A model generated the notes under the pieces. The model had not been told where the DNA came from. It ran no database searches and was given only the letters and a program-made list of their open reading frames with translations. This document shows positions 10,831 to 10,860 of a stretch of 64,000 nucleotides of DNA, piece by piece. The DNA is taken from the UHGV virus genome UHGV-0090252. One strand, 5' to 3'. Source of the stretch: a virus. Within the stretch, counting starts at the first letter, position 1; each line of letters begins with the position of its first letter. A program made the position numbers and the translations under genes.

Positions 10831-10860
10831 CCTTGTCAAGTACTTTGTCAACAACTTTTT
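10831..10860 (+). promoter_or_regulatory. conserved CCTTGTCAAGTAC-N-TTGTCAAC box followed by T-rich tract, upstream of the plus-strand module
   Basis: near-identical 21-bp box recurs at 56736-56760 upstream of the DNA polymerase gene, there followed by TATAAT at about 56766-56771. Confidence 0.5.

Follow-up and report, generated by a model that had tools for sequence, protein, structure and literature searches.

The 64,000-nucleotide stretch of DNA analyzed here (the window) belongs to a Felix O1-like phage (Felixounavirus), in reversed orientation relative to Felix O1 NC_005282. At 95-99% identity, two of its intergenic regions and the DNA on either side of them align with more than 250 Felixounavirus records, among them Escherichia phages heid, pinkbiff, and Alf5. 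As annotated, the ~87-kb genome of heid is divided into five strand blocks with only two divergent junctions, and these are the two regions in question. The first (site 1, ~10701-10951) is the counterpart of the Felix O1 genes 40/41 junction: gp41 (DUF5681), gp42, 25 tRNA genes, terminase, and structural genes lie to its left, and small genes, a tail protein, and lysin to its right. The second (site 2, 56559-56818) is the counterpart of the genes 96/97 junction, with primase-helicase, ribonucleotide reductases, and rII to its left and DNA polymerase, ligase, DHFR, and thymidylate synthase to its right. Among the genes left of site 2, the one at 55335-56135 (minus strand) is named “minor tail protein” in many records. 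It lies within the replication module beside a dNMP kinase gene and lacks any Pfam match; the label has the look of a propagated misannotation.

Each junction carries one exact copy of the 22-nt plus-strand sequence CCTTGTCAAGTACWTTGTCAAC (W = T at site 1 and A at site 2; coordinates in Table 1). We found no further match anywhere in the window when up to three mismatches were allowed, and the box had 0 occurrences in 100 dinucleotide shuffles. A first-pass annotation of this DNA had already reported a box common to the two loci, and the searches bear this out; its length of 21 bp needs correcting to 22 nt, and the end coordinates it gave were one base too long. Sequence identity between the two sites runs 3 nt further left (ACA-CCTTG...). 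The tandem TTGTCAA half-sites described in that annotation are indeed direct repeats, 12 bp apart from start to start, or slightly more than one helical turn. Taken alone, the 7-mer TTGTCAA is only mildly enriched in the window (31 observed versus 20.4 expected).

Both boxes lie between divergent genes. The minus-strand genes start at 10701 (site 1) and 56559 (site 2); on the plus strand, the site 1 box lies ~98 nt 5' of an ATG at 10951 and the site 2 box 60 nt 5' of the DNA polymerase ATG at 56818. A T-rich tract follows the box on the plus strand at both sites (T6 at site 1 and T5 at site 2), as first reported. The TATAAT-like hexamer reported with it is present at site 2 only, and its position reads GTGTCG, GAAACT, GAAGAT, CATAAA, or CAAAAA in related genera, so that it is not conserved. 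Judged by its sequence, the box is a genuine, selected regulatory element common to two divergent control regions.

Proposed leftward promoter elements at three sites

The reverse complement of TTGTCAA is TTGACAA, and the box read on the minus strand (GTTGACAAWGTACTTGACAAGG) therefore holds two sigma70 -35 hexamers: two consensus TTGACA sequences, 12 bp apart and pointing left. The same arrangement occurs at a third site in the window (site 3), upstream of the minus-strand gene 20773-21303, where all surrounding genes are on the minus strand. Tandem TTGACA-N6/7-TTGACA is found three times in the window and three times in the heid genome as a whole; Markov simulations gave an expectation of 0.14, and all three copies are on the minus strand, 5' of minus-strand genes.

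Table 1. Elements of the three sites, with positions in the window.
Feature	Position	Strand	Remarks
Site 1 box	10831-10852	-	GTTGACAAAGTACTTGACAAGG; exact match, gene context
Site 1 distal TTGACA	10846-10851	-	Proposed functional -35 for gp41 (DUF5681), gp42, tRNA cluster and onward
Site 1 proximal TTGACA	10834-10839	-	Within spacer, about -23 to -18; invariant across genera
Site 1 -10 hexamer TAGGCT	10823-10828	-	Predicted leftward start near 10816
Site 1 A6 tract, UP-element-like	10856-10861	-	Just 5' of distal -35; T6 on the plus strand
Site 1 rightward promoter TTGACT-N17-TACCAT	10877-10905	+	Rank 30; invariant in all relatives; outside box
Site 2 box	56736-56757	-	GTTGACAATGTACTTGACAAGG; exact match, gene context
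Site 2 distal TTGACA	56751-56756	-	Proposed -35 of leftward promoter for replication/nucleotide metabolism
Site 2 proximal TTGACA	56739-56744	-	Within spacer; no usable -10 downstream (best placements rank beyond 2,500)
Site 2 extended -10 TGTTAATCT	56727-56735	-	TG 56734-56735, TAATCT 56727-56732; predicted start near 56720
Site 2 A5 tract	56762-56766	-	5' of distal -35; overlaps plus-strand TTGCTT; T5 on the plus strand
Site 2 TATAAT-like hexamer	56766-56771	+	
Site 2 candidate DNA polymerase promoter TTGCTT-N17-TAATGT	56758-56786	+	Weak; position-weight rank 975
Site 3, third family member	21466-21503	-	A6 tract-TTGACA-ATACCCC-TTGACA-TTGG-TAATGT
Site 3 distal TTGACA	21489-21494	-	
Site 3 proximal TTGACA	21476-21481	-	
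Site 3 -10 hexamer TAATGT	21466-21471	-	

At each of the three sites both minus-strand hexamers match TTGACA at six of six positions. Measured from the distal hexamer, a -10 element is found at N17 (TAGGCT, site 1), N18 (TGnTAATCT, site 2), and N17 (TAATGT, site 3); the hexamers TAGGCT and TAATCT have just three of six consensus bases each, a point against a promoter. The proximal subsite of an UP element is A/T-rich, spans about -46 to -38, and has the consensus AAAAAARNR. Here, an A5-A6 tract stops 3-4 nt short of the distal hexamer, both at the three sites and in relatives, and at sites 1 and 2 these A-tracts are the T-rich tracts of the earlier description seen from the opposite strand. 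The geometry of the box relative to the leftward elements agrees within 1 bp between sites 1 and 2.

We ranked -35/-10 placements on both strands of the window (30,115 placements) with a simple position-weight score, whose frequencies represent the consensus of the Hawley-McClure and Harley-Reynolds compilations. Placements using the distal hexamer rank 19th (site 3), 23rd (site 1, TTGACA-N17-TAGGCT), and 40th (site 2, N18 TGnTAATCT). Plus-strand placements of TTGTCA rank 146th at site 1 and beyond 1,900 at site 2. The first-pass annotation had judged the box unfit to serve as a plain sigma70 -35 for the plus-strand TATAAT, and we agree: TTGTCA lies 10 or 22 bp from that hexamer, the ranks are poor, and the TATAAT itself is not conserved. 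We accordingly rejected a sigma70 reading of TTGTCA on the plus strand.

To follow these elements across relatives, we collected loci from IMG/VR anchored on a gene (DNA polymerase for site 2, gp41 for site 1), which makes the sample unbiased. The alignments span Felixounavirus as well as several more distant genera, whose polymerase is 89-93% and gp41 83-88% identical. No Felix-type sequence aligned departs from TTGACA in either hexamer at any of the three sites; the distal one is kept in 15 of the 15 unique relatives that cover site 1 and in all 20 unique Felix-type sequences at site 2. The 6-7 nt separating the hexamers vary freely (AAGTAC, ATGCAC, ATACAC, ATGCGC, AATAAC, TTCCTC, AGCCTC, and AGGGGA, among others). 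In one relative (L022) the box reads CCCTGTCAAG, with the seventh base of TTGTCAA altered and TTGACA intact. The site 1 -10 appears in relatives as TAGGCT, TAGCCT, TAAGTT, or TAGTGT; these share only the T, the A, and the last T, the pattern characteristic of a -10. The extended -10 of site 2 is TGTTAATCT, TGTTAGTCT, or TGGTAGTCT across genera, and the A-tract region AAAAAGCAAG is invariant in all Felix-type relatives. In 16 unique relatives aligned at site 3, the hexamers do not change, the 7 nt between them do, and the -10 is TAATGT or TAACTT; in heid it is TAGATT. Thus the hexamers and the spacer length are conserved, and the six spacer bases that form the proximal TTGACA are likewise invariant, which membership in a sigma70 family does not predict.

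The three sites share one architecture and one orientation, are selectively conserved, and score high as promoter-like placements. We consider it probable that the box forms the core of leftward, host-type (sigma70) promoters, which make up a small family. A member of this family would comprise an UP-element-like A-tract, a distal TTGACA, a 17- or 18-bp spacer, and TAnnnT (preceded by TGn at site 2), with a second TTGACA inside the spacer, 12-13 bp further downstream. The holoenzyme of host RNA polymerase would bind with sigma70 region 4 docked on the distal hexamer, and transcription would start near the positions predicted in Table 1 for sites 1 and 2 and near 21459 for site 3. From site 1 it would drive gp41, gp42, and the tRNA cluster; from site 2, the primase-helicase and nucleotide-metabolism module; and from site 3, gene 20773-21303, running on towards a non-coding convergent junction. 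The use of host RNA polymerase, the start sites, and an early timing of this transcription are what we infer from these features. The first-pass annotation was right to see a regulatory element shared by both divergent regions; its assignment to the plus-strand modules gives way to minus-strand TTGACA hexamers with correct spacing.

These promoters resemble sigma70 early promoters of coliphages (T4 early, T5, T7 A1-A3, lambda PL/PR) in their TTGACA, 17/18-bp spacer, TAnnnT, and A-tract, in their position at the head of transcription units, and in an inferred dependence on unmodified host RNA polymerase. They differ from them in that the Felix-type spacer embeds a second perfect TTGACA that is conserved across genera. 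To our knowledge, Felix O1-type phages have no RNA polymerase of their own and no recognized sigma-modifying factors. In a cell-free extract of E. coli, the genomes of Felix O1 and VpaE1 give rise to phage, as would be expected if unmodified host RNA polymerase initiates transcription. Speaking against the leftward model, RT-PCR of Felix O1 places ORFs 41, 42, 96, and 97 in the 25-min and not the 5-min class, although these data are coarse. A literature search returned no Felixounavirus transcriptome and no map of transcript 5' ends or start sites.

Parts of these promoters have been annotated before. Whichard et al. 2010 (PMC3185647) predicted P41 as TTGACA(N15)TATAGG, whose hexamer is the site 1 distal TTGACA; they saw nothing else homologous in the 40-41 or 96-97 regions and stated that temporal control was unknown. 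GenBank record MZ726791 carries pattern-matched minus-strand promoter features on both boxes, using the proximal hexamer with N15 AATACT at site 1 and the distal hexamer at site 2. The -10 elements chosen in P41 and MZ726791 (TATAGG at N15, AATACT at N15, and GTTAAT at N16) differ from the conserved ones. The leftward -35 elements are thus already annotated, by pattern matching only, and neither source mentions the tandem design or the third site. The box appears ordinary in kind and partly annotated, with its doubled -35 undescribed within the literature searched.

Several further features accompany the sites. The 25 tRNA genes (3778-8669, minus strand) lie downstream of the site 1 leftward promoter and ahead of the terminase and structural genes, and would be co-transcribed either from there or from the TTGACA promoters located at 8725 and 8816. 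Across genera, the leaders that follow the leftward promoters (10702-10815 and 56560-56720, minus strand) show conservation of 0.88-1.0, compared with 0.63-0.91 in flanking coding DNA, and both carry repeated CTTAAAAG-type motifs and predicted stems. In the site 1 leader, CTAAAAAGGCT is predicted to pair with AGCCTTTTAAG around an AGATATC/GATATCT hairpin, and the stem TAACGTAT/ATACGTTA in the site 2 leader shows one compensatory change. An Rfam search of both intergenic regions returned nothing credible.

At 20705-25620 (minus strand), small early genes stand in series, spaced by near-identical 85-90-nt cassettes, each of which has a GC hairpin and a fixed ribosome-binding region, CCTTAAACTAGGAGATTCAAAA-ATG, in addition to a promoter (AAAGTAC TTTACA N17 TAAAGT/TATCTT, or TTGACA...TAAATT). 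The cassettes match in part direct repeats of 57 and 39 bp that have been described in Felix O1. The 1.6-kb non-coding convergent junction at 18821-20455 is rich in CTTAAAAG, CTATAAAG, and CCTTATAAG motifs, with CTTAAAAG occurring 26 times in the window versus ~4 expected from base composition, and repeat regions are marked in the heid record immediately upstream of it (~18354-19356 in the window). This motif-dense stretch could be an origin or a protein-binding array.

Other readings of the box

A promoter combined with an operator would account for the second hexamer differently. The distal hexamer would act as the -35, and a phage or host protein bound to the TTGACA pair or to its proximal copy would occlude the spacer, so that the three promoters would be shut off or co-modulated later in infection; we judge this unlikely. 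Such a reading fits the invariance of the proximal hexamer at a place sigma70 does not read, and the fact that exactly three promoters in the genome share it. It also fits the Felix O1 RT-PCR data, in which the ORFs flanking both junctions fall in one timing class, and the fact that the DNA polymerase operon encodes at least one small protein of the HTH_3 type. Of the eight proteins scanned, this 99-aa Xre-type protein, heid_101 (L004 24194-24493, outside the window), alone stands out as a candidate DNA-binding regulator. Against an operator, conservation ends at the six sigma70 consensus bases with no additional flanking specificity, the 5-7 bp variation in the gap argues against a rigid dimer, and no candidate protein for binding the pair was identified. 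Moreover, an unrelated T4-like clade with the same layout (described below) would need the same regulator.

Two overlapping promoters, each hexamer serving as its own -35 with starts ~12 nt apart, are improbable. At site 1 the proximal hexamer does have AATACT at N15, as annotated in MZ726791, or AACACT at N16 in other genera; this is its only -10 candidate there and ranks 203rd. Nothing resembling a -10 lies 15-19 bp past the proximal hexamer at sites 2 and 3 (AAGTGG and GGGGGG; ranks beyond 2,400), in Erwinia phage phiEa104, or in the T4-like clade.

The first-pass annotation interpreted the TTGTCAA repeats as an activator site or operator shared by the plus-strand units of gene 40 and DNA polymerase, a reading that we now consider very unlikely. 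The box does lie upstream of both plus-strand units. Moreover, the polymerase promoter is weak and has the box ~37-58 bp 5' of its predicted start, a class I activator position, and at site 1 the right TTGTCA could form a rightward extended -10 promoter with TGcAATAGT at N18 (the placement ranked 146th). As far as sequence can tell, the plus-strand promoters are separate from the box and unlike each other between the two sites. The site 1 rightward promoter is strong in rank (Table 1), and at site 2 the pair TTGCTT and TA(A/G)(T/G)GT at N17 is the only conserved element with a fixed 17-bp spacing on the plus strand, with the TATAAT falling in its spacer. The center of the box lies ~70 bp from the predicted rightward start at site 1 and ~46 bp from it at site 2, which speaks against a common activator, as does the unconserved TATAAT. 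At site 3 the same architecture recurs away from any plus-strand gene, and since this site lies among minus-strand genes only, a role in plus-strand modules cannot be general. Conservation follows the minus-strand TTGACA and not TTGTCAA, as the L022 box illustrates. Finally, depending on the site and lineage, 5, 6, or 7 bp separate the hexamers, which does not suit the rigid tandem dimer implied by an activator site or operator of this kind.

We also compared the box with known regulatory sites. The Pho box (PhoB) and related OmpR-family sites are 7-bp direct repeats containing TGTCA with a fixed period of 10-11 bp on the strand of the promoter they regulate, located ~10 bp 5' of the -10, where they replace the -35, and the Pho box resembles the plus-strand view of site 2. 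We rejected this match on the period, which measures 12 bp in the two boxes, 13 bp in the site 3 copy, and 11-12 bp in T4-like phages, and on the unconserved plus-strand TATAAT; unlike in a Pho box, the conserved unit here is TTGACA on the other strand. The sites bound by lambda CII and P22 C1 (TTGC-N6-TTGC) are likewise direct tetranucleotide repeats around a -35 region, but the sequence here is TTGT-N8-TTGT, with a period of 12 versus 10, and in contrast to lambda and P22 this phage is virulent and has no lysogeny module. A MotA box reads (a/t)(a/t)(a/t)TGCTT(t/c)A and lies near -30, 11-13 bp from the -10. The MotA-like TTGCTTTTT occurs at site 2 only, on the plus strand, 15-17 bp from -10 candidates, with none at site 1, and a T4 middle promoter was rejected. 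So was a T4-type late promoter: TATAAATA, identical to the T4 late-promoter consensus, is found at 10815-10822 (minus strand), just downstream of the site 1 -10, but reads TAATAAAA outside Felixounavirus and is absent at site 2, making it lineage-specific. A DnaA box (TTGTCAACA versus TTATCCACA, 7/9, at site 1 only) has mismatches at required positions when compared by eye with the consensus. The CTTGnCAAG palindromy, which might suggest a DNA or RNA hairpin, is kept neither at site 3 nor in relatives and is incidental.

By analogy with T4 oriF/oriG and the T7 primary origin, the sites might be origin-type promoters whose transcription primes or activates replication, with the conserved AT-rich leaders as unwinding elements. 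The position of site 2 between the DNA polymerase and primase-helicase modules, leaders more conserved than flanking coding DNA, and large non-coding regions faced by site 3 and the phiEa104 tandem would agree with this, but GC skew merely tracks gene orientation and the leaders are equally explicable as structured 5' UTRs, so we regard an origin function as highly improbable.

A second TTGACA in the spacer, in two phage groups

Returning to the proposed leftward sigma70 promoters, the proximal hexamer lies at about -24 to -17, inside the spacer, and is conserved as fully as the true -35. Sigma70 normally makes no base-specific contacts of the -35 type in the spacer, and a plain promoter model therefore does not explain an invariant hexamer there. 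Spacer position -18 influences sigma70 promoters (PMC3130263), an effect that cannot explain an entire hexamer. Between the hexamers lie 6, 6, and 7 nt at sites 1-3, 6 nt in the phiEa104 copy, and 5 or 6 nt in the T4-like clade; such variation speaks against a regulator that binds as a rigid tandem dimer in the manner of PhoB. That conservation ends exactly at the six sigma70 consensus bases points instead to sigma70 region 4 or to a reader of equal specificity.

The junctions of Erwinia phage phiEa104 that are equivalent to sites 1 and 2 carry promoters with a single -35, and duplication is thus not required for junction function. Elsewhere in its genome (L062 16494-16530, plus strand), phiEa104 has one 12-bp tandem, AAAAAGCCC TTGACA TTCTAC TTGACA GGGGC TAAAGT, which is located where the early module ends and faces 1.4 kb of non-coding DNA.

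We scanned IMG/VR with the pattern AAAAAG-N2-4-TTGACA-N6-7-TTGACA and obtained at least 119 loci; in 70 of their 94 unique sequences a TAnnnT follows the distal hexamer at N16-18. About 65 loci fall outside the Felix-like group and belong to T4-like myovirus contigs with gp23-like capsid, UvsW, gp46/47, and gp55. In an unbiased T4-like sample anchored on gp55 (68 unique upstream regions), TTGACN-N17/18-TAnnnT is present in 63, on the strand opposite gp55, and 58 of these 63 elements contain a perfect second TTGACA in the spacer. The gaps flanking the inner hexamer are 5+6 (31 cases) or 6+5 (29 cases), and the total spacer stays at 17. That the inner hexamer slides by 1 bp within a spacer of constant length supports a pairing of the distal hexamer with the -10; where a hexamer has decayed in this clade, it is the inner one. 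From its sequence distribution, the doubled -35 layout shows the marks of selection in two unrelated phage groups.

In the T4-like contigs (L202-L281; for example L083 8746-8772, minus strand), TTGACA-N5/6-TTGACA-N5/6-TAnnnT occupies the short gap between a DUF6561 gene and gene 55, always on the strand opposite both. From there it would make an antisense transcript, a direction that is odd for a simple gene promoter. The 123-aa gene beside the element was considered as UvsY, which would have linked it to T4 oriF, and is DUF6561 and not UvsY. Cyanophage S-PM2 has a single-hexamer promoter at the equivalent place upstream of gp55.

A literature search for doubled -35 promoters found none described, and we know of no phage or E. 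coli promoter class with a conserved second TTGACA in the spacer. A possible analogy is lambda PR', where, in work from the Hochschild and Roberts laboratories, region 4 of sigma70 reportedly contacts a -35-like element past the true -35 once Q has engaged the early elongation complex. In both cases a second -35-like hexamer lies downstream of the real one, which at PR' is met by region 4 in a shifted register. PR' needs a -10-like pause element in the initial transcribed region as well as the Q protein, whereas here a -10-like element in the shifted register exists at site 1 only and no Q homologue is known.

Our best guess is that the proximal hexamer is a second docking site for sigma70 region 4 and not a dedicated site for a dimeric regulator, offering an alternative capture register or acting as a spacer element that tunes promoter strength or escape; a regulator may also act on it. 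We propose, tentatively and with more doubt than confidence, that an inner consensus -35 with a specific role, 11-13 bp past the true -35, defines a distinct promoter class selected in unrelated phage lineages. Its members would possibly be the Felix O1-like Ounavirinae, with three sites, and the T4-like clade, with one antisense site near gene 55. Candidate roles for the inner hexamer in such a class are region 4 re-capture at promoter exit, an alternative closed-complex register by which polymerase is concentrated, or a roadblock or insulator.

For Felix O1-like phages, our analysis fixes the direction and anatomy of the proposed promoters at two divergent control regions, provides start-site predictions, and corrects earlier -10 assignments. 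If the inner hexamer is mere redundancy, the finding is an ordinary one. Its invariance and its recurrence in T4-like phages suggest, however, that sigma70 region 4 or a mimic of it reads an element in the spacer. If so, the inner hexamer would be a new basal or regulatory promoter element, and might find use in strong phage-derived or synthetic promoters.
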